Source: Ignavibacteriota bacterium
GTDB lineage: Bacteria > Bacteroidota > Ignavibacteria > UBA10030
Assembly: GCA_963701295.1 (NCBI GenBank)
Contig: OY969585.1
Span: 1,536,001 to 1,600,000, forward strand
DNA length: 64,000 bases
Reading direction: 5' to 3'
Below the pieces are notes generated by a model, which searched no databases, was not told where the DNA came from, and worked only from the letters and a program-made list of their open reading frames with translations. A program made the translations under genes and the position numbers. Shown in pieces: positions 5,277 to 53,035 of this stretch. Each line of letters opens with the position of its first letter. The first letter of the stretch is position 1.

Positions 5277-6440
5277 TCAATGGAACGTCTGACAGATTTC
5301 ATCGCAGAGCACATATCCCTTTGCAGTGAGCCGGAATCGTCCGTCCTCCATCCGTGCACTTCCTTGTTGAATCAATTCAGAGATGATCGATGAATTCTCT
5401 GTTGAAAGGTTACGTGAAAAGCGCCGGCGAAATTGTTCCAGGTCGATTCCTTCGCTTCGCAAGCCGAGAAAGATCGCTTCTTCCATGAATTGAGTTTCTG
5501 TAAGATGTTCTCCGCCTGCAACCGGGAGTGTGCGCTCGCCCGATTGTTTGATGTATGCAGTGAGATCGGATATGTTCCACCAGCGTTCGTTCTTCCAAAA
5601 TGAATGTGCCGATGGACCAAAGCCAAGATAATGAGAGTGATTCCAGTAATTGAGATTGTGGCGGCATTTGAAATTCGGCTTGCCTGCCGCGGCGGGTCTG
5701 GCGAAGTTCGATACTTCGTATTGTTCGTAGGCATGAGAGGTGAGAAAATCGATGGTGAACTCGTATAAGTCGGCATCGCGTTCAAAATCAATCGGTGTTA
5801 CTTGGTTCAATTGAACCATGCGAAAGAGAGGCGTCTCCGGTTCGATGATAAGACTGTAGCACGAGATATGTTCGGGTTGAAGTTCTACCGCTTGTTCTAG
5901 GTTCGATTTCCACTTTGCCAAAGTTTGGTAAGGAAGCGAAAAGATGAGATCAAAGCTGACATTTTCAAACTCGGCGGAGATGCAATCCCGTACGCACTGC
6001 TTCGCCTCGGATGCATTATGAATACGGGTCAGAAACTTCAAGTCTTCATCGTGGAATGATTGAATACCCATGCTAATGCGGTTAATACCGGCAGATCGGA
6101 ATGCGCGAAGTTTCTCTTTGTCTACGGTTCCCGGGTTTGTCTCCAGCGTAATCTCGGCATTCGTCTGAATCGCAAACCGGGATGCAAGGAGGTCGAGTAT
6201 CTTTTCTATTTCAGAAGGATGAAGAAGAGAGGGCGTTCCGCCCCCAAAGAAAATTGTCTCGTATGGTTCATGGAAACGTTGATCCTCCGCCCGAAGTTCG
6301 ATCTCTGTTTTCAGCGCAGAAAGAAACCGCTCTTCCAGCGAGCGGTGCCCTGTTTCTGATTCCATAGGCACGACGGAGTAAAAATCGCAGTAGATGCACT
6401 TGTGTTCACAGAAGGGAATATGAAGATAAAGAGAAGCCAT
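5277..6440 (-). CDS. hemW: Radical SAM heme chaperone HemW (HemN-like)
   Basis: LYLHIPFCEHKCIYCDF (CxxxCxxC), GGGTPS, YEVSNFA...HNLNYW. Confidence 0.92.
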   Translation of the reverse strand: MASLYLHIPFCEHKCIYCDFYSVVPMESETGHRSLEERFLSALKTEIELRAEDQRFHEPYETIFFGGGTPSLLHPSEIEKILDLLASRFAIQTNAEITLETNPGTVDKEKLRAFRSAGINRISMGIQSFHDEDLKFLTRIHNASEAKQCVRDCISAEFENVSFDLIFSLPYQTLAKWKSNLEQAVELQPEHISCYSLIIEPETPLFRMVQLNQVTPIDFERDADLYEFTIDFLTSHAYEQYEVSNFARPAAAGKPNFKCRHNLNYWNHSHYLGFGPSAHSFWKNERWWNISDLTAYIKQSGERTLPVAGGEHLTETQFMEEAIFLGLRSEGIDLEQFRRRFSRNLSTENSSIISELIQQGSARMEDGRFRLTAKGYVLCDEICQTFH

Positions 6441-6475
6441 TTGGGATTTTCAATTTCCAAGTTGAAAATTGGCAA

Positions 6476-7399
6476 TTAACGAATCAGTGTACCAATCCTC
6501 TTCCATCGGATAGTCGACAACTTTTCTAAGATATTTGAGACGGAAACTTCCGTGTCCCACGACCAGTACACGAACAATGCTTCACCGATTAAATGATCAT
6601 CCGGTACAAAACCCCAATAGCGGCTGTCCATACTGTTGTCACGATTGTCACCAAGAACGAAATAGTAATTCTGGCGAACACGGTACGTCGATGCCACCAC
6701 GCCGTCAATCAAAATCATATTGTCGACAATCTGAACAGCGTGTCCTTCACGTTCAATGAGCATGTGCCATTGGGCGATGGTTGGCAGTTCAAGTTTTAGA
6801 ATATCACCCTGCTTTGGAACAATGATAGGCCCATAGTCGACATTGCTGAATGTTGAACCCTTTGGAAACATCTCTGGATTTTGTCGCCATGAATTTCCAT
6901 TCGAATGGTCGGATTGAATTCCATGAGGAGGAAGAGGAATGAGAATTTTGTTTACATAGGCAAGACCGGAATGAATTTCCAGCGTGTCACCCGGCAAGCC
7001 GATACATCGCTTGATATAATTGACATGCTCTGCAGGAGTGATCTCGTCTCTGTCGCCAGGAAATTCAAACACGATCACATCTCCGTGATGGATGTTCTGG
7101 AAAAAAGGAAGTGTGAACGATGGTATGGTTCGTGCAATAAGCGGCAGATAGCGCGGTGTACGCAAGCCATATGCAAGTTTGTTGACCAAAAGGAAATCAC
7201 CTATTTGGAGCGTTCGTTCCATCGAAGTCGAGGGAATGCGATATGCATCAAGCACAAAGACTTTTAAAAGGAGAGCTGCAAGCACCGTGATCAGAATGGT
7301 CTTGCCGTATTCCATCAGTGTTGATGTAAGATTCTTCTCCTTTTGTTGTATGTGAAGAGAGTGATCTCGAGATGTACTATGGGCAGATTGCTCCTGCAT
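6476..7399 (-). CDS. lepB: Signal peptidase I (paralog 2)
   Basis: IPSTSMERTLQIGD, YIKRCIGLPGD, GDNRDNSMDSRYWG. Confidence 0.93.
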   Translation of the reverse strand: MQEQSAHSTSRDHSLHIQQKEKNLTSTLMEYGKTILITVLAALLLKVFVLDAYRIPSTSMERTLQIGDFLLVNKLAYGLRTPRYLPLIARTIPSFTLPFFQNIHHGDVIVFEFPGDRDEITPAEHVNYIKRCIGLPGDTLEIHSGLAYVNKILIPLPPHGIQSDHSNGNSWRQNPEMFPKGSTFSNVDYGPIIVPKQGDILKLELPTIAQWHMLIEREGHAVQIVDNMILIDGVVASTYRVRQNYYFVLGDNRDNSMDSRYWGFVPDDHLIGEALFVYWSWDTEVSVSNILEKLSTIRWKRIGTLIR

Positions 7400-8304
7400 T
7401 ATTTAATGAGTGAACCGATGCGACCCCAGCGCACTGATGCAAGTCTCCCAAAAATATCATAGAGTGGGAGGTCGGAGTTCCACGACCAATAGACGATCAT
7501 CGGTGTGCCGACAATGTTTTCTTTTGGAATAAATCCCCAGTAGCGGCCGTCAAGACTATTGTCTCGGTGGTCGCCCATGCCAAAGAGATAATCGCGCTGC
7601 ACGGTGTATGAGGTTGCAGGTTTTCCGTCAATCAAGACTGATCCGGTGATCGCTTCCACTGTGTGTCCTTCCCGTTTAATGAAGATTTGCCATGCAGAAT
7701 AATTTTGTACGTTCAGTGGAATCACCATACCTTGTTTCGGGACGACAAGCGGACCGAAGTTGTCTTCATTCCATCCGGCGCCGATAGGGAAGATACGATC
7801 GTCTGCTTCGTTTGCAGGCACCGACCAACCGCGATCGAATCTGACATTGCGGGGTAATGGCAGCATTTGTCCATTCACCGATAAGACACGATTACGAATT
7901 TGAATTGTATCGCCGGGTGTTCCAACACACCGTTTGAGGTAGAAGGTAAAATCCTGCGGTTCGACTTCGTCGCGCATGCCTGGGAAGACGAATACAATGA
8001 CATCACCGCGTTTCACATCTCTGAATGCCGGTACGCGAAACCATGGTAAACGTACATTGGTGAAAGGAATGTTCCGCGGCGATGTTCCACCGTAAATAAA
8101 TTTGTTGACGAAGAGCAGTTCACCTGTTAGCACCTCATTTTCCATCGATCCGGTTGGAACCAGAAAGGACGCAACGACAAAGTTGTTGATAAGAAGAAAG
8201 AGACCTAAGACGATTCCTGTTTCTTTCAGGAATGCTTTTGTCTTTTCTTTCAATGTCTGCGGAGTCGATTGTTCTTCCTTTTTTTGTTTCTTGTCGTTAC
8301 TCAT
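7399..8304 (-). CDS. lepB: Signal peptidase I (paralog 1)
   Basis: VPTGSME, YLKRCVGTPGD, GDHRDNSLDGRYWG; follows lepA. Confidence 0.93.
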   Translation of the reverse strand: MSNDKKQKKEEQSTPQTLKEKTKAFLKETGIVLGLFLLINNFVVASFLVPTGSMENEVLTGELLFVNKFIYGGTSPRNIPFTNVRLPWFRVPAFRDVKRGDVIVFVFPGMRDEVEPQDFTFYLKRCVGTPGDTIQIRNRVLSVNGQMLPLPRNVRFDRGWSVPANEADDRIFPIGAGWNEDNFGPLVVPKQGMVIPLNVQNYSAWQIFIKREGHTVEAITGSVLIDGKPATSYTVQRDYLFGMGDHRDNSLDGRYWGFIPKENIVGTPMIVYWSWNSDLPLYDIFGRLASVRWGRIGSLIK

Positions 8305-8332
8305 AGTTGTCCTTCTGTTTAATTTTTATCCG

Positions 8333-10132
8333 TTATTCTTCCAATGATAGAACGGCAAGGAATGCTTCCTGCGGCACTTCTACACTGCCGACTCGTTTCA
8401 TCCGCCGCTTGCCTTCTTTTTGTTTCTCCAGCAGTTTTCTTTTTCGTGAGATGTCGCCGCCGTAACATTTTGCCAGCACGTTCTTGCGAATGGCGCTGAG
8501 TGATTCACGCGCAATCACTTTACTGCCGATAGCGGCTTGTATTGCCACCTCAAACATTTGACGTGGAATCAGCTCCCGAAGTTTCGAGCAAAGTTTGCGT
8601 CCCCATTCATACGATTTCACACGGTGGACGATGGTGGAAAGTGCATCAACTGGTTCCCCATTCAACAAAATGTCCAATTTTACGAGGTCAGAATCGCGAT
8701 ACTCAAGAAAATCATAGTCTAATGAAGCATAACCACGCGAGAGTGATTTAAGTTTATCGTAGAAATCGAAAATAATTTCAGATAATGGCAGTTCAAAATG
8801 GATATCGGCACGCTCTGGACTGAGATAAGTAGTGTTACGGTGAATACCGCGTCGGTCCATACAGAGTTTCATAATGTTGCCGATGTATTCTGTCGGTGTG
8901 ATGATTTGTGCCTTCACGAATGGCTCTTCTACTTTTTCAATCTTGCCGGCATCCGGCATAAGCGAGGGATTATCGACAAAGAGAACATCTTTGTCTGTCT
9001 TTGTAACGCGGTACTCGACGTTCGGTACTGTATTGATGAGGTGCTGGTTGTATTCGCGTTCCAATCGTTCACGGACGATTTCCATATGAAGAAGTCCGAG
9101 AAATCCGGCACGGAATCCGAATCCAAGGGCAACGGAGGATTCAGGTTCGAAGATGAGTGAAGAATCGTTCAATTTCAGTTTGTCGAGCGCGTCGCGCAAC
9201 TCGCCAAAGTCATCACTGTTGGATGGATACATACCGCTGAAGACCATCGGCTTGGCTTCTTTGTAACCCGGAAGCGGTTCTGCAGCAGGATTATCTACGA
9301 GCGTAATCGTATCGCCGACTTTCGTGTCGTGTACATCTTTGACATTCGCAATGATGTAACCGACATCGCCCGCAGAAAGTGAACCGATTCGTTTTCTCTG
9401 CATCTCGAGAATACCGATATCTTCTGCTTGAAATTCCTGCCCCTTTGAGAAGAACCGAATCTTATCTTTTTCGTGCACGGTTCCTTCCATTACACGAATG
9501 TAGGCTATTGCTCCGCGGTACTCATCAAACACTGAATCGAAGATCAATGCTTTCAGCGGCGCGTTCGGATCGCCTTTCGGAGCGGAAATACGCGAGACGA
9601 TAGCTTCGAGCACTTCCTCCACCCCTATGCCGGATTTTGCACTGCCCATGAGAATTTCTTCTTCCGTACACCCGATGAGATCGATTACCTGCTTCTTCAC
9701 CATGTCGATCATCGTCTTAGCGCTTGGTAGATCGATTTTATTGATGAACGGAATAATTTCAAGTCCGGCGTCGATAGCGAGATACAGATTGGAGATGGTC
9801 TGTGCTTCTACACCCTGCGTTGCATCTACCACCAGAATCGCACCTTCGCAAGCGGCAAGCGAGCGCGAGACTTCGTACGTGAAGTCTACATGACCCGGCG
9901 TGTCGATGAGATTTAATGTATAACTCTTTTTGTTGCGGGCTTGATACCTGATCTGGATTGCGTGTAGCTTAATGGTGATGCCGCGTTCCTGCTCAAGATC
10001 CATGTCATCGAGCATTTGCTTCGTCAGGTCACGGGTAGCAACGGTGCCGGTATATTCTAACAAACGGTCGGCGAGTGTCGATTTACCGTGGTCGATGTGA
10101 GCGATAATACAAAAATTGCGGATATGTTCCAT
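8333..10132 (-). CDS. lepA: Translation elongation factor 4
   Basis: [49 protein letters not shown]. Confidence 0.98.
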
Positions 10133-41923: not shown

Positions 41924-43294
41924 TTAATTCATTATGCTTCTAACTTCTTCAATAGATATAGGTTTAGAAATTATTTTAAGTTGCCTATCAATCAAAAACA
42001 TTGTTGGTGTAGCGTAAATAAAATAATTATTCGCAGCTTCTCCATCCCAACCCTTTAGATCAGAAGCATTAATTAGTGAAGAACAATTACCTTTTATAAA
42101 ACTTTTCCAATCTTCTTTTTTTGCGTCAAGAGAAATCGCAAGCACCTCAAATTTTTTTCCGGTTTTATCTTCCTTCATTTTATTCAACTTAGGTAATATT
42201 TCTTTGCAATGCGGGCACCAGCTTGCATAAAAAACAATTAGGATTTTCTCGGCATCAATGCTACTTAGATTTATTTCTCTTCCGTTAATATCGGGGATAG
42301 AAATATTCGGCACCGTGTTGCCAATTTTAAAATTCTTCGCCTGCTCAATTCTCCTTTTAATTAATCCTTCCGTTTTTACATCCAAACAGAGATCATCTTT
42401 TATAACATAGTTTTCCACTATGTAATCGAGCACTTTATCGAAGCCGAATTTCTTAAAGCCGTCAATCAAGTATTCAGTGATATGTTGATAGACAAGCTGA
42501 TTCACTTTTGCTTTGTTAAGAATCGAATCAACAGCTCTCATAAATTCTTTTTCGAGAAGTTCTTTAGGAAGCTGTGGGTTGCGGTAATATGTTAAATACT
42601 CAATCGCTTTGTTGGTAAAAAGATCTGAATTGATCAGTAAAGTATTATTGAAATCAACATTATCTAAAGCGTGTACTTTGAGATAGTCAAGCTGTCTTTC
42701 CAAAGAGATAGAACCATTTATAACAGGAAGCTGAGCTGAACGAATATATTTTGCAATGAATGAATTAGGATTATTCTGAGCAGTTACATTTACAAATTCT
42801 AAGTATTCGTTTTGTATTTGGGTTAATCTGTTTTGTGTTGCATGGTAATAACTATCATCTTTTGGATAGCGGGCAAGGATAAGTTGAAGCAATTCTGTTT
42901 TGGTTTTGTATGCTTTGTTAAGAATAACAAAAGAGCAATAAAGTTTATTACTTTCAGAATCAATCACTTCCATGCTGTCTAAGATATTATTTGCGTCTGT
43001 CCTTAGCTCAATATCTTTTCCGTCATAAATAAAATCGATCAATTTATTGGTGCCAAAAGTTAAGCGGTAAAATCCGGCATGAAATTTTTGAGGATCGGAT
43101 TGATAAATAATTATCCCATCTTCATTCGAATTAACCGAATCGATCCTTGCTGTTTTTTCTCCGCTTAAAGAATAGAAAATAAGTTTACCGGCTTTGTAAT
43201 TAGACAAATAGACACTAATGGATTGGGAGTAACTCTTGAATTGAATGTATAATAAAAATAGAATAGAAATAGAGACTGCTGTTTTTCTATTCAT
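41924..43294 (-). CDS. Secreted TlpA/redoxin-type thiol-disulfide oxidoreductase with long N-terminal domains
   Basis: Signal peptide; C-terminal FYASWCPHC...YFIYATPTMFLID; AT-rich. Confidence 0.85.
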   Translation of the reverse strand: MNRKTAVSISILFLLYIQFKSYSQSISVYLSNYKAGKLIFYSLSGEKTARIDSVNSNEDGIIIYQSDPQKFHAGFYRLTFGTNKLIDFIYDGKDIELRTDANNILDSMEVIDSESNKLYCSFVILNKAYKTKTELLQLILARYPKDDSYYHATQNRLTQIQNEYLEFVNVTAQNNPNSFIAKYIRSAQLPVINGSISLERQLDYLKVHALDNVDFNNTLLINSDLFTNKAIEYLTYYRNPQLPKELLEKEFMRAVDSILNKAKVNQLVYQHITEYLIDGFKKFGFDKVLDYIVENYVIKDDLCLDVKTEGLIKRRIEQAKNFKIGNTVPNISIPDINGREINLSSIDAEKILIVFYASWCPHCKEILPKLNKMKEDKTGKKFEVLAISLDAKKEDWKSFIKGNCSSLINASDLKGWDGEAANNYFIYATPTMFLIDRQLKIISKPISIEEVRSIMN

Positions 43295-43437
43295 CTCATA
43301 AAATTCTTTTTATTTTTTGCAAACGTACGCTTTTATGCACGCTAAATCAATGAATGCTTTTAAATTCTTTCCATCATTTCTTCTTTTCTTCTTTCCTTTA
43401 ACCCGTCAACCATAATAAATCATCCATCAAACATCTT

Positions 43438-44199
43438 CTAATCCTTGATGCAGCGAACACTCAAACCGAGTGTTTTATTGAAAGGGAAGTAGTTGACATT
43501 ACTATTGTCGAGGACCAGGTACATGCCCCATGCGCCGCCAGTATTGTACTCCGTAGAACTCCAAAAGTGAGCGTAGTCATTAACGACGAAGGAATTATCG
43601 ATGTTGCGGTAGCCCGCAAGCAACGCAGAAAACCCGCTGGTATTTGTACCAACACCGCTTCCCGTTCCTTGCCCTACTGCTTTTAATGCATTTCCATCAT
43701 TGCTTACTGTTGTTGATAACGTTTCAAATTCTGTATATGTTGGTATGTGCCAACCGGTTGGGCAAATGCCTTGTACATTTCCAGAAAAAGCTGGACTAGG
43801 TGATGTTGTATTTGTAGCTCCATTTAGATATTGAACTGCTTCAGCCCATTGGTATAAACCGCCGTATGCTGTACAATTTGCCTCATCATCGCTGTAGCAG
43901 TATTTTTCTATTGTACTGTTATTCGTTTGGTCTGTGCTACCGGCTATTCTTATTCCTAAATTAAGGTTCTCTTTTAACCAGCATTGGCTGCCTATTACTA
44001 CAGTGGTATAAGTTTGCCCAGCATATGTAATGGTACTAGTTCCACAAGTAAAAGCAACATTAGTAAATGTTAAATTAATAATATCGTGAACCCAAATATC
44101 CTCCGTTGTGTTATCTGCCTTCTTTACGCTCATCTTATATTGCGCAAATATTGCACTAGTCCCTAACACAAATATCATGGTAAATAATATCTTTTTCAT
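43438..44199 (-). CDS. Secreted FISUMP (Fib_succ_major) domain protein; probable DGR-type target
   Basis: YTTVVIGSQCWLKENL, YGGLYQW, QGICPTGWHIPT, SGFSALLAGYR, FWSSTE, GLSVRCIKD. Confidence 0.9.
   Translation of the reverse strand: MKKILFTMIFVLGTSAIFAQYKMSVKKADNTTEDIWVHDIINLTFTNVAFTCGTSTITYAGQTYTTVVIGSQCWLKENLNLGIRIAGSTDQTNNSTIEKYCYSDDEANCTAYGGLYQWAEAVQYLNGATNTTSPSPAFSGNVQGICPTGWHIPTYTEFETLSTTVSNDGNALKAVGQGTGSGVGTNTSGFSALLAGYRNIDNSFVVNDYAHFWSSTEYNTGGAWGMYLVLDNSNVNYFPFNKTLGLSVRCIKD
43450..43611 (-). repeat. Putative DGR variable repeat in the FISUMP gene
   Basis: 26 of 54 codons end in C and 44 in C/T, versus 3 of 35 ending in C just upstream (hand count). Confidence 0.6.
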
Positions 44200-44219
44200 T
44201 TTTAATTCCTTCTCAATAT

Positions 44220-45062
44220 TTATTTTATCATTAACATTTTTATAGTACTTGAATAATTAGCAGAACTCATTTTACAGATATAAACACCGCTTGCTAATCT
44301 GCTTCCATCTAATGTTGCTTCATAGCTTCCGGCTTTTTTATTCTCATTTACGAGAGAAGCTACTTCTCTTCCTAAAACATCAAAAACTTTCAGAGTAACA
44401 AAACCATCAATCGGGAGGTTATATACAATTTTTGTTTGCGGATTAAATGGATTTGGAAAGTTATGCTTTAATGCAAAGTTTGCCGGTGCTTCTATAGTTA
44501 CTTCAACAACATTGCTGTATTCGAACTTGCCGTCAAGGTTTATCTGTTTTAAACGGTACTGGAATTTTGTTCCTTCTTGTGGTGTATCTTTGAATGAATA
44601 CGTTTTTGGACTGTTGCTGTTTCCATGTCCTTGAACAAAACCAATCTTCTCCCACACACCCCTGCCTTCGGCTTCCCCTCTCGAGAGGGGATTAAGGGGT
44701 GTGCTTCTTTCTATCTCAAACCCGTAATTGTTCACTTCAGTGGCAGTATACCAAGATAACGTAATTGTTTTCTGATCTACCGTTGCAATGAAACTCACAA
44801 GTTCAACCGGTAATAATGATCCGCCGTTGCTTGCACCAAATGTAATGTTCGAAATGGTTGACATTCCATCAGTTGTTACATCAGAACTAGCTAGTTGGAA
44901 AATAATATCAGTTCCATTAAAAGTGATTTTTGTTAATCCTGAGATGTCAATTGTTTTCTTGGAGCTATTAGTATAAAGAACATTAAGATAGGTTTGAGAA
45001 TAGAGTTGAACTGAAAAGAAAAACATAAATAAGATATTTAAAGCATTAATAGAATGTTTCAT
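44220..45062 (-). CDS. T9SS type A sorting-domain protein with two N-terminal ~26-aa repeats
   Basis: Signal peptide; LPVELVSF...ATEVNNYGFEIER...Y RLKQINLDG; CTD NFPNPFNPQTKI...LASGVY...KMLMIK. Confidence 0.88.
   Translation of the reverse strand: MKHSINALNILFMFFFSVQLYSQTYLNVLYTNSSKKTIDISGLTKITFNGTDIIFQLASSDVTTDGMSTISNITFGASNGGSLLPVELVSFIATVDQKTITLSWYTATEVNNYGFEIERSTPLNPLSRGEAEGRGVWEKIGFVQGHGNSNSPKTYSFKDTPQEGTKFQYRLKQINLDGKFEYSNVVEVTIEAPANFALKHNFPNPFNPQTKIVYNLPIDGFVTLKVFDVLGREVASLVNENKKAGSYEATLDGSRLASGVYICKMSSANYSSTIKMLMIK
44655..44703. repeat. Palindromic (REP/RPE-like) element inserted in-frame in the T9SS gene
   Basis: Outer CACACCCCT/AGGGGTGTG, inner GCC-TTC-GGC and perfect 18-bp palindrome TCCCCTCTCGAGAGGGGA. 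Confidence 0.7.
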
Positions 45063-45090: not shown

Positions 45091-45196
45091 CTCGTTACCA
45101 ATGTCCTCGTTGGTAACGCAACAAGAAAGAAGCTCTGCTTCATCAGCAATGAAACGGAGTTTCATAATAGTCCGTTACAAAGCAAGAGCTTTGTAA
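45091..45196. repeat. Four-hairpin REP-like element
   Basis: CGTTACCAA/TTGGTAACG, GAAGC/GCTTC, ATGAAAC/GTTTCAT, TTACAAAGC/GCTTTGTAA. Confidence 0.6.
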
Positions 45197-45232
45197 TATT
45201 ATACAAAAGAAAAAGTGCAAAAGAGCAAAGGA

Positions 45233-46348
45233 TTATCTCTTCTGGAGAACATGAAACCCGAGGCAGTTGTAGCGAGCGCCCGGACCGTATCCGCCGCGGT
45301 AGAACACGCGACAGTCATCATTGACGTTGAGCCAGGAGCAACCGCGACCCACACCTGATGTGCCGCACCACTCCCACACATTACCAGACATATCAAAAAT
45401 TCCCAATTCATTCGCTCTCTTTGCGCCTACTTCGTGTGTTTTTTTACCGGAGTTACCATCATACCACGCAACTTTATCAATTATGTTGCTGCCACTGTAT
45501 TCATATCATTTGGAATTTTCTCCACCTCGGACAGCGTATTCCCATTCATTTTCTTCCGGTAGGCGAACGGTTGTTCCTGTTTCTTTGCTCAACCAATTGC
45601 AAAAAGCGACAGCATCGGCAACATTCACGTTGATAACCGGCTGTTTTCCTCTACCAAAATCTGCACTGAGCTTATCGTATCCTGTCGCTTCGCAAAACTT
45701 ATCATACTGATCGAAGGTAATCTCCGTTGCAGATATATAAAAATCTCCTCCCGTTTTGCCTTTTACTAAAATCCAAGTGATTAAAGATTGCTTATCACGC
45801 TCTATACGAAGAAGAGATAATTTCATCTCAAGTTGAGTGATTTTATCCTGCTCCTGTGTAATCATTTCAGGTTCGCCATAAACATAAATTGGGACATTAC
45901 CGCCAAATGCGTTTTGACCATAGGTTTTTCCAATAAAGTGATGGAAAGTGGGACCATTGCCACCGTAATTATTGGCTGTAACACTTTTCAAGCTATAGTT
46001 TTTGACTTGTAGATTTGCTTTTCCTGAAACAAATGCTCCGAAATCATTAATTCTATTCTGGTCATGCGAGCCATCTATATTGACGGGGTAGGCATTTCCA
46101 TAAACAAGTATCTGATTTTCATCACGATCAACAATTTCGCCCATAATCCAAAAACGAGGGTACTTTAAATTTAGGGATAATATTAATGACTTAGAATTCT
46201 CAATTTTCGTTTCGATGTCCGAAATTCACTGTTCAATGGTACGAGTGTGTGAAGGTGTTTTCTTTTTTTCTTGAGCGTCTATCACATGGGAAGAAAAAAT
46301 GATTGCAAAGATAATTAAGGGAAGAATTGAACAGGAATGTTTCATCAT
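45233..46348 (-). pseudogene. Secreted FGE-sulfatase (C-type-lectin-fold) protein with two in-frame TGA stops; probable DGR-type target
   Basis: One frame from ATG 46348/46345 (MKHSCSILPLIIFAIIF...) through TGA 46226-46228 and TGA 45506-45508 to TAA 45233. It contains RLPEENEWEYAVRGG, NELGIFDMSGNVWEWC and RGCSW...LGFH. Confidence 0.85.
45254..45346 (-). repeat. Putative DGR variable repeat in the FGE gene
   Basis: 19 of 31 codons end in C and 26 in C/T (hand count); GC-rich block in an AT-rich gene. Confidence 0.6.
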
Positions 46349-47395: not shown

Positions 47396-47542
47396 GGAAA
47401 ATCTATCGTAATCTGTTCCTCAAAATGACCGGAATTACTCCACTGTATCAATATATCAAGGCAGATCGATGGATGCAAGTTATGCGATGAAGCGATGGGT
47501 CCTTGAATGAAGTCTGAGGAGTCATTATCTTTAAGCAAAGCC

Positions 47543-47571
47543 CCAACCTTTTCCACAGATCAAAGGTCTAA
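47543..47571 (+). promoter_or_regulatory. Putative autoregulatory ECF promoter
   Basis: CCAACCT-N17-TCTAA upstream of the ECF gene. Confidence 0.4.
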
Positions 47572-47605
47572 TTTCATGTCTGACAAACAAAGGAATTCCG
47601 AATGT

Positions 47606-48184
47606 ATGACCGGCAATGAAACCGAGTTGATTATGCAAGCCCAGCAGGGCAATGTGAATGCATTTGAGCAGCTTGTTCATCGGCATGATAAACGAGTTCT
47701 CACAATCGCGGCAGGGTATGTGCACAGCGCCGACGACGCAAAAGATATCTATCAGGAAGTATTCCTCCGGGTATATAAAGGTCTGCCGAAATTTCAATAT
47801 AAGAGCGAATTTTCTACTTGGATTTATCGGATAACGACAAATGTGTGTTTAAGTCATCGATCGCGCAGAAACAGAAATTCGAATACGTCACTCGATCAGA
47901 GTATGGATGATGAAGACGGTCAACCGCATGCATTGAAAGATACGCTCTCCGATACTGCTGTTGCTGGTCAGCAGACATATGATGCGGAGATAGCTTTGCG
48001 TGTGGAACAAGCACTGAAAACGCTATCACCACGCCAGCGGATTGTTTTTACATTGAAGCATTATGATGGCTATAAGTTAAGAGAGATTGCAGAAATGATG
48101 AAATGCAATGAAGGAACTGTGAAGAAGTATCTCTTCGAAGCAACGGCACGTTTGCGAAAGCAACTGAAAGATTTAGCACGTTGA
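47606..48184 (+). CDS. ECF RNA polymerase sigma factor
   Basis: DAKDIYQEVFLRVY, FSTWIYRITTN, LREIAEMM...GTVK; start uncertain (47576 or 47606). Confidence 0.92.
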   Translation: MTGNETELIMQAQQGNVNAFEQLVHRHDKRVLTIAAGYVHSADDAKDIYQEVFLRVYKGLPKFQYKSEFSTWIYRITTNVCLSHRSRRNRNSNTSLDQSMDDEDGQPHALKDTLSDTAVAGQQTYDAEIALRVEQALKTLSPRQRIVFTLKHYDGYKLREIAEMMKCNEGTVKKYLFEATARLRKQLKDLAR

Positions 48185-48206
48185 AGAAAAAAGTGAGGAA
48201 CGATCT

Positions 48207-49169
48207 ATGAAGCACAAACAGTTTGAAGAATGGCTCCAGCTTTCCTTGTATTATGAATTAAGCGAACAGGAACGAGTTTTTCTGGATAACCATCTTACAA
48301 CATGCGAGCGATGTCGTAGTGATCTCGAAGAATTGAAAAAACTCCATGGTACGTTAGCACATCGTCAATCGGTCGCAGTACAAGAGTCCTTGCTTCAGGA
48401 TGCACGAAGAAATCTACAATTACAAATTCATGCTGGAGCAATACGGAAATCATTCTGGGGCGGAGTGAAAGATGTACTCGATGGAATTCTTATTCCATCA
48501 GTTCCAGTGGCATTGGGTGGAGTCGTGATGATTGCAATTGGAATTCTTGTTGGATATTTCGTCTACAAATCACCTTCAGAAAAATCCTTGACAACAAAAC
48601 AGGCTGCGGCGATAGAAGCCGGAGAGTCTCAAATTACGAATATCCGTTTCCTTGATCGCGATGCACAAACAGGAGATGTTGAGTTTACATTTGAAACAAT
48701 CACGCCAGTGCATATACGCGGCAATATAAATGAGGAGCATGTGCAAAAAGTACTTGCACGAGCACTCGTGAGCGATCAAAATGCTGGCACGCGACTCCGT
48801 GCTGTGAATATGATTGGTACACAAACCGGGCAAAAACAGAACCACGTTCCTGAATTTGATGCAGAAGTAAAATCCGCTCTCGTTACAGCGCTTTTACATG
48901 ATCGAAATCTTGGAGTACGGAAGGAAGCACTCAATGTGCTCAGAAATTATTTACCGGATCCGGTCATTGTTCGCGCATTTCTTCAAGTATTATCGAGTGA
49001 AAAGAACACCGGCTTGAAGATTGCAGCGATTAATTCGTTAGACTTGTCTCAATATGAAAACCAACCGGTGAATAAGGAAATTCTTGAAATGTTCAAGAAT
49101 AAAGCTCAATCAGACGATAATAGCTATATCAGAATCAAAGCAAAGACAGCTTTGCAGGAGGTGCAATAA
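48207..49169 (+). CDS. Anti-sigma factor (zf-HC2 + TM + HEAT repeats)
   Basis: HLTTCERC, one TM, DQNAGTRLRAV and DRNLGVRKEAL HEAT-like repeats. Confidence 0.82.
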   Translation: MKHKQFEEWLQLSLYYELSEQERVFLDNHLTTCERCRSDLEELKKLHGTLAHRQSVAVQESLLQDARRNLQLQIHAGAIRKSFWGGVKDVLDGILIPSVPVALGGVVMIAIGILVGYFVYKSPSEKSLTTKQAAAIEAGESQITNIRFLDRDAQTGDVEFTFETITPVHIRGNINEEHVQKVLARALVSDQNAGTRLRAVNMIGTQTGQKQNHVPEFDAEVKSALVTALLHDRNLGVRKEALNVLRNYLPDPVIVRAFLQVLSSEKNTGLKIAAINSLDLSQYENQPVNKEILEMFKNKAQSDDNSYIRIKAKTALQEVQ

Positions 49170-50317
49170 TGAAAACTTATATGCGGATACTCATTGCCAC
49201 ACTTGTGGCATTGCTTGCAACGACGCTTGCGTTGGCAAGAGAAAATGGAAGTAGTTCGAAATCGTTTAGCGTCAGCAAAGGAGGGACGATAGAAATTTCC
49301 ACCAGTACGGGGGATATTCGTATTTCTCCGTGGGAGAAAAATGAAGTTTCTGTAGTGGTAGAGGGGTTAGACGATGAAGACCTTGACAAAGTAAAAATGA
49401 CTCAAAACGGGAATATTGTTCGTGTATCCTATCGATCACGGTGGGATGATGGTTCAGGACATGTTCGCTTTGTTATCTCTGTGCCGTCACAATTTAATTT
49501 AGACATGAACACATCCGGTGGTGACTTGGAAGTAAAAGGGGGACTAACTGGGAAGATCGATGGATCGACCTCTGGGGGTGATATCAAATTAGGAAATGTT
49601 TTTGGCGGTCCGGTAGAAGTGTCGACGTCCGGAGGCGATATTAGTACAGGAAAGATTGAAGGCGACGGAAGTTTGAAAACCGCCGGCGGAGATATCCAGG
49701 TTGGAAGTGTGAATGGGTCACTCTCAGTCAATACTTCCGGCGGGGATATCCAAGTGGAGACAATCACAAAATCTCTTGATGCGAAAACTGCTGGGGGCAG
49801 TATCAACATTGGTAATGTTGGCGGAGAAGTAAATGTCTCGACATCCGGCGGTGATATCAAGGTAGGCAAGGTTTGGGGCAAGGCAACACTCAACACGGCA
49901 GGCGGTGATATCGAATTAAAAGGAGCGAGCGGCAATGTGAGCGCAAAAACTTCCGGTGGAGATGTAAAGCTGCAGAACATCACCGGTTCGGTTAATGCAA
50001 AAACTTCCGGTGGCGAAGTGGAAGCAGAATTGATCCCCAGCGGAAAAGGCGGCAGTAAACTTTCATCATCGGGCGGAGATGTGCGGCTTTATATTGATGA
50101 AAATTCTAAAGCAACAATTGAAGCGACCATTCGTCTCGATGGATGGGGCTCGCGAAAAAGCCGATATATTGTAAAGTCGGAATTCCCCAAAGAATCGTAT
50201 GAAACTGACGAAGAAGCTGACGAAATTCGCGCCGTTTATAAATTAAACGGCGGCGGTGAGTTGATTGAACTGAGCACTTCAAATTCGAATATCGAGATTC
50301 ATAAGCTGCGGCATTAA
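49169..50317 (+). CDS. DUF4097 (beta-strand repeat) secreted protein 1
   Basis: Signal peptide; many TSGGDI/TAGGDI repeats. Confidence 0.85.
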   Translation: MKTYMRILIATLVALLATTLALARENGSSSKSFSVSKGGTIEISTSTGDIRISPWEKNEVSVVVEGLDDEDLDKVKMTQNGNIVRVSYRSRWDDGSGHVRFVISVPSQFNLDMNTSGGDLEVKGGLTGKIDGSTSGGDIKLGNVFGGPVEVSTSGGDISTGKIEGDGSLKTAGGDIQVGSVNGSLSVNTSGGDIQVETITKSLDAKTAGGSINIGNVGGEVNVSTSGGDIKVGKVWGKATLNTAGGDIELKGASGNVSAKTSGGDVKLQNITGSVNAKTSGGEVEAELIPSGKGGSKLSSSGGDVRLYIDENSKATIEATIRLDGWGSRKSRYIVKSEFPKESYETDEEADEIRAVYKLNGGGELIELSTSNSNIEIHKLRH

Positions 50318-50377
50318 TAAGACGTTGATCAATATAACGGAATGAATTATTCAAATAATATTTTAAGGAAGAGTCCA

Positions 50378-51478
50378 ATGAAAAAAATATTTGCATTCCT
50401 TTTGATGGGTTTCGTAATACCGTCTCTCTCGTTTGCTCAGAAGCAATCAGACGATGCATCTGATTACCAATCAAAATCCTTTTCTGTCCAGAAAGGCGGA
50501 TTGCTTACGGTCGATGTTGATCCGGGAGCGGTGCGTATTGGGACGTGGGCTAAAGACGAAGTTTTTATTGAAGCGGAGGGAATAGATGAACGTCATCCTG
50601 ATCGCCTTGTGATGAATCAATCCGGAAATAATGTTACGGTGGAATATAAGGACAAACGTTCTCATTCTGACCATCTAAAATTCAGTGTTAAGGTTCCATC
50701 GAATTTTAATGTTGTCGTACAAACTTCCGGCGGAAGTATAAAACAAAAAGATGTGCTTACCGGCGATTTCCAAGCGGAAACGAAGGGAGGCAGTATCGAG
50801 ATAGATCATATCATCGGCAAGGTTGATGTCGAAACCGGAGGCGGCAGTATTAAAGCGGATATAGTTGAAGGCGACGCCGCAATGAAAACCGGCGGAGGAA
50901 GTATTGAAGCAGGAGTTATCAAAGGGACATTGCATGCGAAAACCGGAGGCGGTAGTATTACATTACGGGAAACCGGCGGCAAAGTGAATGCATCAACGGG
51001 CGGCGGAAGCATCAAGGCAGAAAATGCAAGCGCCTGGATTGATCTTTCCACCGGCGGCGGCAGTGTGCATGTGCGTGGAGCGAAGTATGGAGCGAAAATA
51101 AAAACAGGCGGTGGCAGCATTGAAATGGAAGATATTGTAGGACTTGTAGATGTATCGACAGGAGGAGGAAGTATTAATTGTGAACTAACTCCAGGCAGCA
51201 CTGGAAATAGTACGATCAGCACCGGCGGAGGAGAGATTCAACTCTCCTTACCTGAGAACGCAAAAGCTGTTATTGAAGCCACTATCAACGTGGGAAATGG
51301 ATGGGGTCGGCATCACAAGAAATGCGCGATCCATTCCGATTTCAAAGCAGATACTTACGAAGGTGATGATAAAAGCGATGAGATTCATGCTGTCTATACT
51401 TTAAACGGCGGCGGACAAAAGATTACGCTTGAGACTTCGAATAGCGACATTGAAATCCAGAAGATGTCTGCTAAATAG
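50378..51478 (+). CDS. DUF4097 (beta-strand repeat) secreted protein 2
   Basis: Signal peptide from ATG 50378; TGGGSI repeats; C-terminus paralogous to the previous gene. Confidence 0.85.
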   Translation: MKKIFAFLLMGFVIPSLSFAQKQSDDASDYQSKSFSVQKGGLLTVDVDPGAVRIGTWAKDEVFIEAEGIDERHPDRLVMNQSGNNVTVEYKDKRSHSDHLKFSVKVPSNFNVVVQTSGGSIKQKDVLTGDFQAETKGGSIEIDHIIGKVDVETGGGSIKADIVEGDAAMKTGGGSIEAGVIKGTLHAKTGGGSITLRETGGKVNASTGGGSIKAENASAWIDLSTGGGSVHVRGAKYGAKIKTGGGSIEMEDIVGLVDVSTGGGSINCELTPGSTGNSTISTGGGEIQLSLPENAKAVIEATINVGNGWGRHHKKCAIHSDFKADTYEGDDKSDEIHAVYTLNGGGQKITLETSNSDIEIQKMSAK

Positions 51479-51506
51479 TCATGTGAATGTCTGCAAAAGT
51501 TTAGCC

Positions 51507-51562
51507 ATAGCCGTCATCTGCCAAAGGCATGCCTTCGGCATTTGATGACGGCTATTTTTTTT
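51507..51562 (+). terminator. Rho-independent terminator with two mini-hairpins in the loop
   Basis: ATAGCCGTCATC/GATGACGGCTAT 12-bp stem enclosing TGCCAAAGGCA and TGCCTTCGGCA; T8 tail. Confidence 0.8.
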
Positions 51563-51657
51563 CTATCACTATGTTCTTCTTCAAGGATTGAATTCAATAG
51601 TAGTCATAGCGGACATGTTTGAAATTTGTCTTGATCCGTTGAATAGCTTCCTTCCCC

Positions 51658-51685
51658 TTTAACCTTTATCTTCTTGTGTCGTATC
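51658..51685 (+). promoter_or_regulatory. Putative ECF promoter for the second ECF operon
   Basis: AAC-N16-CGTA (51661-51683), 27 nt upstream of ATG 51711. Confidence 0.5.
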
Positions 51686-51710
51686 ATTGCAAGAACAAAG
51701 ACACCTACGA

Positions 51711-52289
51711 ATGCAGAATAGTAAACCAGTTGATGCACTTGCGAAACTTATTGAAGATGCCCAAAAAGGTGATATAATGGCATTTGAAAAAATCGTCAAA
51801 TGTCATCAATCATATGCATACGCTATTGCCTTCAGGTTCTTTTGCGATGAAGATGACGCAGAGGATGTTGTTCAGGAAAGTTTTATCAGAATATAGAATC
51901 ATTTAAAAGATTTCGATTCGAGAATGAAATTTACAACATGGATGTACAAGATCGTTGTCAATCTTTGCTATGACAAAGCTAAGTCCAACAAGAGAAGAAC
52001 GAGTGTGTTTGCGAGATTGAATGACGATTCCTCTAAAGACGACTGTATCGAAAATACCGATATAGAACAGGATTTGACCAATAAAGAAACAGCGGCGTTG
52101 ATCAAACGTATTGCCGATGAATTATCCGAAAAGCAGCGAATGATTTTTCTGCTGAGAGATTTGCAGGACCTGACCATTGAAGAAGTTACCGAGATTACAG
52201 GTATGTCTGAATCGGCGATAAAAACAAACCTGTTTTACGCAAGACAAAACATCAAAAAGAAATTAGCGAAGTTAGAGGTAAGCGTATGA
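51711..52289 (+). pseudogene. ECF sigma factor interrupted by an in-frame TAG
   Basis: DAEDVVQESFIRI*NHLKDFDSRMKFTTW; TAG at 51894-51896 where Trp (TGG) is usual; both halves in one frame. Confidence 0.85.
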
Positions 52290-53035
52290 CGTGCAAAGAA
52301 CTACAACGGCTTCTTTACTCGGCAAGAATCGAAGACTTCGATCCGGCTGAAAGAGAATTCTTAAAGAAGCATCTTGCTGATTGCGAAACGTGCAAAACGA
52401 TCTTTCAGGAAGTATCGAAAGCTGATCGGATACTTGCCCGCATCAAGGAGGCAGCACCCCGCATCCGAAACGAGCACGCGTTGACAGAATTCATTATCGA
52501 TGCAATTGTTAGCGGCGAGAGACCAACGGCAGATGTTGGCACAAATACCTTCCTCGATAGTCTGATGAACATATTCAGCATGAAAGCAGTCCGATTGACT
52601 TGTAGTATCATGATCCTCTTGTGTGGAATGACGTATTTATTTATGGAATACAGTGACATGAAAGAAATAGTGAGCCTGGAACAAAGATTAGGTATACAAC
52701 ATGATTTCAGCCGGGCAAGCATAGTTCTACCCGGGGTCAATGTTCCAGGTTTCCTCTATGATTTTTACGAATTGTCTGATGGGAGTCGGAATTATATAGA
52801 GCTGACTAATAAACTTATTCTTATGAAGAAGGAGGATTTGCAGACTTTGTTAAAGGATTATAAGACATTGGATGAATCCTCTCGCAAAAGATTGGATGAG
52901 ATGCAGAATCAATTTCTTGAAGATGAATATCTGAAACTTAGTTCTACGAATAAAAACCAAGAAATCAAAAAGCTTCAAAACGAAATCAAACGGCTGAAGA
53001 AAGAACTAGAACAAAGTAACCTTAAGGATAAATGA
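52286..53035 (+). CDS. Putative zf-HC2 anti-sigma factor with TM and coiled coil
   Basis: MTC...HLADCETC; TM segment; overlaps the sigma stop (ATGA). Confidence 0.75.
   Translation: MTCKELQRLLYSARIEDFDPAEREFLKKHLADCETCKTIFQEVSKADRILARIKEAAPRIRNEHALTEFIIDAIVSGERPTADVGTNTFLDSLMNIFSMKAVRLTCSIMILLCGMTYLFMEYSDMKEIVSLEQRLGIQHDFSRASIVLPGVNVPGFLYDFYELSDGSRNYIELTNKLILMKKEDLQTLLKDYKTLDESSRKRLDEMQNQFLEDEYLKLSSTNKNQEIKKLQNEIKRLKKELEQSNLKDK

Follow-up and report, generated by a model that had tools for sequence, protein, structure and literature searches.

The locus and its three genes

The window analysed here, a stretch of 64,000 nucleotides, contains three co-directional ORFs on the minus strand, which lie where the preliminary description had placed them and are separated by intergenic gaps of 20 bp and 143 bp (Table 1). 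A scan for promoters and terminators revealed nothing above chance level. The genes had been described as AT-rich, which is correct for P0001 (GC 0.352) and P0003 (0.324), whereas the FISUMP gene P0002 is barely AT-rich (0.404 compared with 0.424 for the whole genome).

Table 1. Features of the locus (window coordinates)
Feature	Position	Strand	Remarks
Carrier gene P0001, 280 aa	44220..45062	-	signal peptide, two docking-type modules (candidate), Ig-like domain, T9SS type A CTD
Carrier module 1, residues 23-48	44919..44996	-	basic type, T-K-I-T-F
Carrier module 2, residues 51-75	44838..44912	-	pairs with module 1 in a predicted six-stranded beta domain, pLDDT 92
Ig-like domain, residues 84-190	44493..44813	-	between modules and CTD
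T9SS C-terminal sorting domain	44223..44486	-	PF18962 / TIGR04183
Passenger gene P0002, 253 aa	43438..44199	-	signal peptide, one module, FISUMP (CLec-type) domain; no CTD, no lipobox
Passenger module, residues 20-45	44065..44142	-	I-N-L-T-F; atypical, final strand not immediately preceded by an acidic residue
DGR-type variable tail of P0002, residues 197-253	43441..43611	-	low conservation, C-ending codons
P0003, 456 aa	41924..43294	-	TlpA/ResA-like thiol-disulfide oxidoreductase, WCPHC at 42206-42220; accessory gene with loose linkage to the pair

In P0001, the sorting domain was recognized by Por_Secre_tail PF18962 (residues 202-278, 44.7 bits, cut-off 27) and by TIGR04183 (41.6 bits, cut-off 23). 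T9SS machinery is encoded in the genome, with matches to SprA (E 3.6e-233), PorV (E 1.2e-34) and peptidase C25 (E 2.6e-91), and 102 ORFs with a C-terminal CTD were counted. The Ig-like domain of P0001, previously overlooked, is also found in 12 larger ORFs of the genome.

P0002 belongs to the FISUMP (Fib_succ_major) family (TIGR02145, 143 bits, cut-off 41.65; PF09603, 108 bits). It had been described as a protein with several cysteines and no T9SS CTD or lipobox, and this was confirmed: six cysteines were counted, each 98-100% conserved, no CTD was present and a pattern check detected no lipobox-like pattern in either P0001 or P0002. The signal peptides of both proteins were called by eye, not by a predictor, from a hydrophobic stretch ending before Q.

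A short module shared by carrier and passenger

The motif copies quoted in the preliminary description were exact, with a length of 24-25 aa, and their similarity between P0001 and P0002 is significant by profile comparison. The hhalign scores were 27.9 for carrier repeat 1 against repeat 2, 25.4 for the passenger against repeat 1 and 19.0 for the passenger against repeat 2. In 100 column shuffles not one of the three scores was equalled, and the best score among 44 control windows from the Ig/CTD region was 10.4. At the level of single sequences the similarity is weak: phmmer gave no link between the two N-termini, and an HMM based only on the carrier repeats gave most passengers less than 7 bits. 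The module class was defined by an HMM built on hand-picked members; in leave-out tests 30 of 37 of them scored at least 8 bits, compared with none of the 37 reversed sequences.

No Pfam family for the module was found in the Pfam copy used, with 21 carrier and 37 passenger modules searched up to an E-value of 1. On some homologues, precomputed annotation lists PF26707/DUF8237. PDB sequence searches with alignments A1, A2 and A4 gave no credible match, and the Atlas feature search gave nothing for either the carrier module or a passenger module. The Atlas structure search returned 10 rows, nine of which were clusters mostly from Bacteroidota (lipocalin-like, cellulase, DUF4465, FN3, nuclease); all remained under the naming bar and serve as leads only.

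The two carrier modules were predicted to form one all-beta, six-stranded domain with an internal two-fold repeat. Since this pair is confidently predicted to fold alone (pLDDT 92), it would need no partner strand, which counts against a docking function. The nearest solved folds are small Sm-like barrels, namely the DUF903 family with YgdR and YgdI (Z 5.0-6.1) and Hfq (Z 4.4-5.0), with an rmsd of 2.8-4.3 over approximately 50 residues. These scores are too low for a claim of homology and may show only a common arrangement; in contrast to the barrels, to which there is no sequence similarity, the domain described here is an internal repeat. Foldseek gave no match at E 0.001 with the module pair and only FN3/Ig matches with the full carrier.

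Carriers and passengers differ in charge at the two positions before I-T-F. Among 41 carriers, these positions were basic in 34, acidic in three, both in two and neither in two; among 52 passengers, they were acidic in 45, basic in three, both in one and neither in three. The K of T-K-I-T-F is invariant in all 21 carriers of alignment A2. At one locus (L056) the charge is reversed on both carrier and passenger. The acidic site is missing from the P0002 module, which counts against docking. The predicted all-beta fold and the charge pattern are compatible with docking.

Carrier and passenger genes are paired across genomes

Whether the motif recurs on CTD-less proteins and on CTD-bearing neighbours, a question raised in the preliminary description, was answered positively from both directions. 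In a FISUMP-first survey (165 ORFs left from 185 after dereplication at 90%), a carrier was located within 3 kb of 30 of 31 module-bearing FISUMP genes but of only 1 of 89 module-less ones, counting only genes with at least 1 kb of upstream sequence. Per locus, module and carrier occurred together in 22 cases, the module only in one, the carrier only in none and neither in 73. The corresponding Fisher p of 9e-21 is overstated because the loci are related. Starting from the carriers, each of the 16 new strong full-length ones lies next to a gene with the module; this count omits seven weak carrier matches (E 0.0025-0.009) and CTD-only rows. None of the 13 complete passengers found in this way has a CTD, the other three being cut or truncated. 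The loose passenger pattern occurs at a background rate of 54 in 2138 ORFs. The CTD protein at locus L217 is a different small one without a module.

A passenger-first scan of 221 genomes had low sensitivity and may have missed counter-examples; every strong match was a training member. Inspection of 15 weak loci yielded one further carrier-passenger pair (L275); the other 14 were noise-like. A scan for the Cthe_2159 family was positive in only 3 of 121 genomes.

The payloads of the passengers comprise FISUMP, FGE-sulfatase, Lcl_C/DUF1566, Cthe_2159, FN3 and TIG with Endonuclease_NS. In 35 of 41 pairs, -4 to 28 bp separate carrier and passenger genes, and single carriers are accompanied by two or three passengers at L032, L084 and L202. 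The module numbers on carrier and passenger can be 1+1, 2+1, 2+2 or 3+1, which points to no single stoichiometry and counts against the docking model. Of the three-gene order proposed before, the conservation of the carrier-passenger part extends well outside the source genome and to payloads other than FISUMP, whereas the third gene is only loosely linked.

Module and CTD exclude each other on passengers

A CTD was present on 14 of 118 other FISUMPs but on none of 35 complete module-FISUMPs. Likewise, among 120 homologues, 64 carried the module and 15 a C-terminal CTD, with no overlap, and proteins found by the passenger module alone had a CTD in none of 74 cases. Matches to the carrier profile, on the other hand, contained a CTD in 77 of 97 cases, and most of the remainder look like fragments. 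Lipoprotein versions of the same payloads have neither a module nor an adjacent carrier (FISUMP at L051 and L177, Cthe_2159 at L260). Many FISUMP proteins with a signal peptide lack module, CTD and lipobox alike (e.g. L042, L071, L114); thus, FISUMPs need not leave the periplasm, which counts against the docking model. It had been argued that variable tail and CTD compete for the same end of a protein. FISUMP-CTD fusions are common (the 15 of 120 above) and non-CLec payloads use the module as well, so that such competition is not absolute, and a strict form of it was rejected as the cause.

The variable tail of P0002

The value for C-ending codons (C3) was 0.47 in the tail of P0002 compared with 0.16 in the core, and the DGR of a relative has a template repeat to which the tail is 72% identical across 93 nt. 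The hypervariability previously supposed was not supported as an active process in the source genome. No reverse transcriptase (PF00078) was detected in this genome, which is 99.32% complete, tblastn with the reverse transcriptases of two relatives gave no match at E 0.01, and neither blastn nor an adenine-tolerant scan found a template repeat, the best non-self site having 31 non-A mismatches in 130 nt. An active DGR in the source genome was therefore rejected. Scans around 15 passengers found no template repeat either. In a comparison of alleles for variation of the adenine-template type, codon 218 reads TAC in the window, GAC in L109 and GGC in one 151-nt record (depth 2.6), and 6 of the 14 differences between the window and L109 fall in the tail, the alleles being too few to show a pattern; contigs from sequencing runs provided fragments only.

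In relatives, Avd, a template repeat and a reverse transcriptase or a fragment of it are present at L052 and L262, and one relative has carrier, passenger, Avd and template repeat together. The reverse transcriptase at L044 lies near a module-less FISUMP with no template repeat found, and was not classed as part of a DGR. Probably, the tail of P0002 descends from a DGR target and is now orphaned.

A proposed docking model and its alternatives

Judged from sequence comparisons, the shared N-terminal beta module probably docks the CTD-less FISUMP onto the T9SS carrier for co-export and surface display, a reading to which we assign a probability of roughly 60% because of the shared module, the conserved adjacency, the interchangeable payloads, the lack of passengers with both module and CTD, and the T9SS genes. 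Both proteins would enter the periplasm via Sec/SPI, where the beta strands of their modules would pair, aided by the basic site of the carrier and the acidic site of the passenger. The translocon would then recognize the carrier CTD and export the complex, and a PorU-like sortase would cleave the CTD and anchor the carrier, leaving the passenger displayed non-covalently with a free C-terminus. The requirement of a CTD for T9SS export, as stated in PMC11285876, counts against this model.

Binding might also be confined to the periplasm. The CTD protein would then serve as chaperone, inhibitor or retention factor, and its partner would not be co-exported or would leave in vesicles. The FISUMPs without module, CTD and lipobox fit such a role, and so does an extracellular enzyme lacking a CTD that an excerpt of PMC6247017 attributes to vesicles, a case which also speaks against docking. 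Carriers mostly keep an intact CTD, however, the payloads are typical surface domains that elsewhere have a CTD or lipobox, and the same module occurs with six payload types although a chaperone should be matched to its client; we consider this explanation unlikely. Similarly doubtful is a co-assembly of carrier and passengers in the manner of Sm/Hfq proteins, as a polymer or ring giving a carrier-anchored multi-subunit array or fibre, possibly subunit by subunit. The Sm-like nearest folds, the variation from one to three modules and the presence of up to three passengers per carrier would suit it, but the Z-scores are middling and may reflect a shared arrangement only, and a CTD-less subunit would still need the carrier to cross the outer membrane, so that this idea merges into co-export.

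It is quite improbable that the two proteins do not bind each other at all, with the module serving both for ligand binding or self-dimerisation and the genes being adjacent only through co-regulation. The closed domain predicted for the two carrier modules, which a single module could imitate by homodimerisation, and the low similarity between single sequences would agree with this, but the near-obligate adjacency from both directions, the module/CTD exclusion on passengers and the opposite charges with their joint reversal at L056 would be left unexplained. Passengers could finally have arisen from a duplicated carrier 5' end (signal peptide and first module) and carry the module as a functionless relic, as the tandem arrays and broken copies at L084, L091, L202 and L208 might indicate. 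Passenger modules, however, retain a signature of their own, I-D-S-I-T-F/Y, even in distant lineages, unlike that of the neighbouring carrier, which implies selection and makes a relic very improbable.

Comparison with known systems

T9SS type A cargo is described in PMC11285876 and PMC5445135 as carrying a CTD, being exported by PorV/SprA, cleaved by PorU and anchored to LPS. Measured against this description, P0001 is canonical in its signal peptide, Ig-like domain and CTD, in a genome with SprA, PorV and C25 homologues; the differences are that the passenger lacks a CTD and that the carrier has no recognisable payload besides its modules. The ABM1/ABM2 motifs of P. gingivalis gingipains (PMC10319874, in excerpt) likewise are short motifs that non-covalently hold CTD-less pieces at the surface of a T9SS bacterium, as proposed here; compared by description only, they hold together the pieces of a single polyprotein with a CTD once it has been exported, whereas the present partners are encoded by separate genes.

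DGR targets of the CLec2 class (DUF1566/Fib_succ_major; Legionella LdtA) have a C-terminal variable region, and LdtA is a lipoprotein (PMC5758913, partial text); DGR-diversified type V pili of Bacteroides consist of lipoprotein pilins (PMC11601372, partial text). P0002 shares the domain class and the C-terminal variable region with the former, and L052 and L262 resemble them in their DGR components. In contrast to these lipoproteins, as far as the excerpts describe them, display would here run via a T9SS carrier, in a genome with no reverse transcriptase or template repeat found. With no lipobox-like pattern in P0001 or P0002, membership of the type V pili was rejected.

In cohesin-dockerin pairs of cellulosomes, hitch-hiker export by Tat and AB5 toxins secreted via T2SS, a tag attaches a payload to an anchored or exported partner. 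The putative docking resembles these systems in its generic tag and interchangeable payloads and differs in module type, secretion system and the minimal carriers with one to three modules. Cohesin-dockerin membership was discarded, since no such Pfam family was among the matches of the 21 carrier and 37 passenger modules at E-values up to 1.

Implications for T9SS secretomes

Predictions of T9SS secretomes rely on the CTD only. The pairs described here could represent an unrecognised second tier of T9SS in Bacteroidota-type bacteria, which we hold to be slightly favoured by the evidence: minimal carriers, which bear a CTD and would dock by a polarised beta module, would export and display interchangeable CTD-less payloads such as lectin-fold binders, carbohydrate-binding proteins and nucleases. 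In some lineages the payload would be a DGR-diversified binder, so that a constant scaffold would be combined with a variable binder, and the module would be a transplantable 26-residue export tag. In that case the translocon would be able to transport complexes of proteins, a group of surface proteins would have gone unnoticed so far, and the occurrence of CTD-less proteins outside such cells could be explained in a testable way. A route to the display of C-terminal DGR-type variable domains with their C-terminus free would become apparent as well, and the 26-residue tag with a carrier of 150-280 residues would make a compact tool for surface display. No published description of a module-sharing carrier/passenger pair was found in the literature searched.

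The thiol-disulfide oxidoreductase P0003

As proposed, the third gene carries WCPHC in an oxidoreductase-type domain. P0003 matched AhpC-TSA with 64.6 bits, indicating an AhpC-TSA/TlpA-type domain, and stayed below the cut-offs of all named equivalogs. The additional claim that it is a foldase dedicated to the pair did not hold. Genes of the CxxC family are located near 13 of 17 module-FISUMPs and also near 12 of 63 module-less ones, only one of the 10 close homologues of P0003 in nine other genomes adjoins a pair, and in at least two genomes the family is unlinked from the carrier-passenger pair. Its occurrence is thus not confined to loci with the pair, and P0003 probably helps periplasmic disulfide formation generally.

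The carrier–passenger gene pair

All three minus-strand open reading frames of the preliminary description were found as claimed, with the quoted motifs, the T9SS C-terminal domain (CTD), the FISUMP domain and the WCPHC motif. We coined the labels carrier (P0001) and passenger (P0002) for the first two products, which share the N-terminal module. Sequence pattern and domain searches found neither CTD nor lipobox in P0002. Both mature proteins would be predicted to start with Q, which is usual for SPI substrates of this group according to the available part of PMC5837995. The Ig-like domain of P0001 has 12 paralogues elsewhere in the genome. The window sits on a single 3.64-Mb contig, and the genome (99.32% complete) encodes SprA, PorV and C25 homologues, one FISUMP gene and one module pair; its SprA gene is possibly in two pieces, or carries a frameshift close to its end. 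Neither the carrier profile nor the oxidoreductase matched other genomes of the same genus (n=5) or family (n=14), and an AT-rich composition is seen in two of the three genes; for these reasons the block was probably acquired. The FGE-sulfatase-like gene next to it is either a pseudogene or contains a sequence error.

Features of the window and of compared loci
Feature	Coordinates	Strand	Content
P0001 (carrier)		-	signal peptide; modules 23-48, 51-75; Ig-like domain 84-190; CTD
P0002 (passenger)		-	signal peptide; one module 20-45; FISUMP
FGE-sulfatase-like gene (CLec)	45165-46144	-	immediately upstream of carrier; one in-frame TGA near 45506-45508; frame runs on to CLec-type tail
Sigma factor region (by eye)	47507-53035	+	ECF sigma factor, probable anti-sigma, two glycine-rich repeat proteins, second sigma-like ORF
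SprA match	G000:C1:3470871-3477363		spread over 2037-aa and 313-aa open frames
L052, Ignavibacteria genome	1517-5488		complete DGR: module-less FISUMP target, bAvd, TR, RT; transposase-like ORF between bAvd and TR (by eye)
L262, genome G749	5857-8482		one cassette: three-module CTD protein, module-FISUMP, bAvd, TR, truncated RT
L263	971-3312		DGR-like cassette: RT, TR-like text, FGE-type targets (by eye)
L264	26-2943		as L263
L203, genome G161	6624-8888		CTD-less passenger: two modules, TIG repeats, non-specific endonuclease domain
L123	4955-8186		small CTD proteins nearly devoid of an N-terminal domain, each immediately followed by a CTD-less FISUMP

Similarity between single module sequences is weak. 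Comparison of profiles from 21 carrier N-termini (alignment A2) and 37 passenger modules (A4) gave scores of 27.9 for repeat 1 against repeat 2, 25.4 for the passenger against repeat 1 and 19.0 against repeat 2. These were equalled by 0/100 shuffles, and 44 Ig/CTD control windows reached at most 10.4, so that the proposed likeness of the motifs is significant. Pfam and PDB sequence searches returned no family and no structure covering the module. An AlphaFold2 model of the carrier module pair (pLDDT 92) has a beta-beta-short helix-beta arrangement, twice; the closest solved folds are small Sm-like barrels, with middling Z scores.

Genome and metagenome scans yielded 158 FISUMP loci, which together with five more contained 185 FISUMP ORFs complete at the 5′ end. 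After dereplication (n=165), 38 carried the module (score at least 18.3) and 127 did not (at most 3.6). A carrier lay within 3 kb of 30/31 module-bearing and 1/89 module-less ORFs, counts that require at least 1 kb of upstream sequence (leaving out 7 and 38 ORFs, respectively), use a partly circular module-class HMM (leave-out recovers 30/37) and include related, non-independent loci. The motif thus recurs on CTD-less FISUMP proteins beside CTD-bearing neighbours, as had been anticipated. The sole module-positive ORF without a carrier (L136) lies in a region filled to the contig end by other FISUMP genes; the sole module-negative ORF with one (L168) shares its locus with two module-bearing genes. 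FISUMP loci were mostly labelled Ignavibacteria, 'Bacteroidota bacterium' or Bacteroidales.

Starting from the carriers, the A2 profile revealed three new strong ones in 301 genomes, flanked by three module+FGE genes, by two modules+TIG+endonuclease and by module+Lcl_C; recurrence on FGE proteins had also been suggested. The profile matched 97 representative proteins, many being two-module+CTD proteins of 145-180 aa. An alignment of 38 of these (A5) recovered 13 full-length carriers from a distant part of the phylum. For all 13, the next gene, at -4 to 21 bp, encodes a signal peptide followed by 1-2 I-D-S-I-T-F/Y-like modules and FISUMP, Lcl_C, Cthe_2159 or FN3 payloads (three passengers truncated or cut by contig ends). 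The carrier–passenger system is real and conserved. In one protein, P0179, a repeat read by eye as dockerin-like takes the place of the CTD behind two carrier-type modules, which suggests an alternative anchor for the carrier.

Proposed docking and the alternatives to it

The modules differ in charge just before the last strand: this site is basic only in 34/41 carriers and acidic only in 45/52 passengers, and K/R occupies position -1 in 58/59 carrier first repeats compared with 2/37 passengers. The window passenger is an exception to the acidic site (I-N). At L056 the polarity is reversed (carrier D-S, both passengers L-K), and this joint reversal, at a single locus, fits a heterotypic interface.

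The best-supported mechanism, to which we assign a probability of roughly 0.6, is that the module docks the passenger on the carrier, which would lead to T9SS co-export and display; some such docking becomes rather more probable if a polymer variant is included. Cohesin-dockerin pairs, Tat hitch-hiking and AB5 toxins are analogous. Three arrangements are seen for the same payloads: a CTD of their own, a lipobox, or the module together with a neighbouring carrier. Module and CTD coincided in 0/35 complete module-FISUMPs; among 120 database homologues, 64 had the module and 15 a C-terminal CTD, with no overlap, and the CTD was absent from 74/74 proteins found in a search with only the passenger module (212-678 aa only, mostly close kin). 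The earlier argument that CTD and variable repeat compete for the C-terminus holds only in part, since FISUMP-CTD fusions exist. A fourth class, with a signal peptide and FISUMP and nothing else, makes it less certain that export is required of every passenger.

An internal CTD-like domain (near residues 70-150) precedes FISUMP in 25/118 module-less proteins (L036, L040, L043, L048, L051, L055, L059, L063 and others), leaving the C-terminus free, and may offer a further escape from the CTD rule. At L123 the FISUMPs have an N-terminal Ig-like domain of a different kind; this is perhaps a second carrier–passenger type.

The system is apparently undescribed so far: in the main texts of the open-access papers searched, neither carriers of this kind nor T9SS co-export independent of a CTD was described, and the term 'FISUMP' was absent. 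The nearest T9SS precedent, in the accessible portion of PMC10319874, is the gingipain ABM1/ABM2 motifs. The available excerpt of PMC11601372, on DGR-diversified Bacteroides type V pili, makes no mention of T9SS.

The oxidoreductase

Oxidoreductase genes are enriched near FISUMP genes yet not specific to the pair, lying close to 13/17 module-positive and 12/63 module-negative FISUMP genes. The 10 close homologues, spread over 9 genomes, include one beside a pair, one beside a module-less FISUMP and two at a distance of 2-4 kb from FISUMP genes; in G161 and G193 the gene is unlinked from the pair. The idea of a dedicated foldase was thus not borne out. From the proposed three-gene order, the carrier–passenger adjacency stood; the oxidoreductase was missing from 4/5 14-kb carrier regions.

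Probable traces of a DGR in the passenger tail

The proposed DGR-like tail of P0002 looks DGR-derived from its conservation, codons and TR alignment, but RT and template-repeat searches of the window genome found neither element. Conservation drops to 0.45-0.49 in the tail, and third-position C is 0.47 compared with 0.16 in the core (tail exceeds core in 119/133 homologues). Against the TR of L052, mismatches fall at 35/66 TR adenines and 34/127 other positions; this TR is related, not cognate. Within L052 itself, 14/15 TR mismatches are at A. Near-identical alleles differ at codon 218 and are too few to show DGR activity. The available parts of PMC5758913 and PMC8144416 describe, respectively, Fib_succ_major as a class of CLec2 targets of DGRs whose VRs are mostly C-terminal, and remote DGR targets.

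An RVT_1 match was absent in 4/5 other pair-bearing genomes. L263 and L264 belong to genomes related at the level of order and family, and no module was seen in either cassette. Searching 301 genomes for RT gave three matches, one of which, L262, is a decayed DGR on a carrier–passenger pair: its TR mismatches fall at 27/67 adenines compared with 8/132 other positions, and its modules, which belong to a divergent subtype, score only 5-12 bits.
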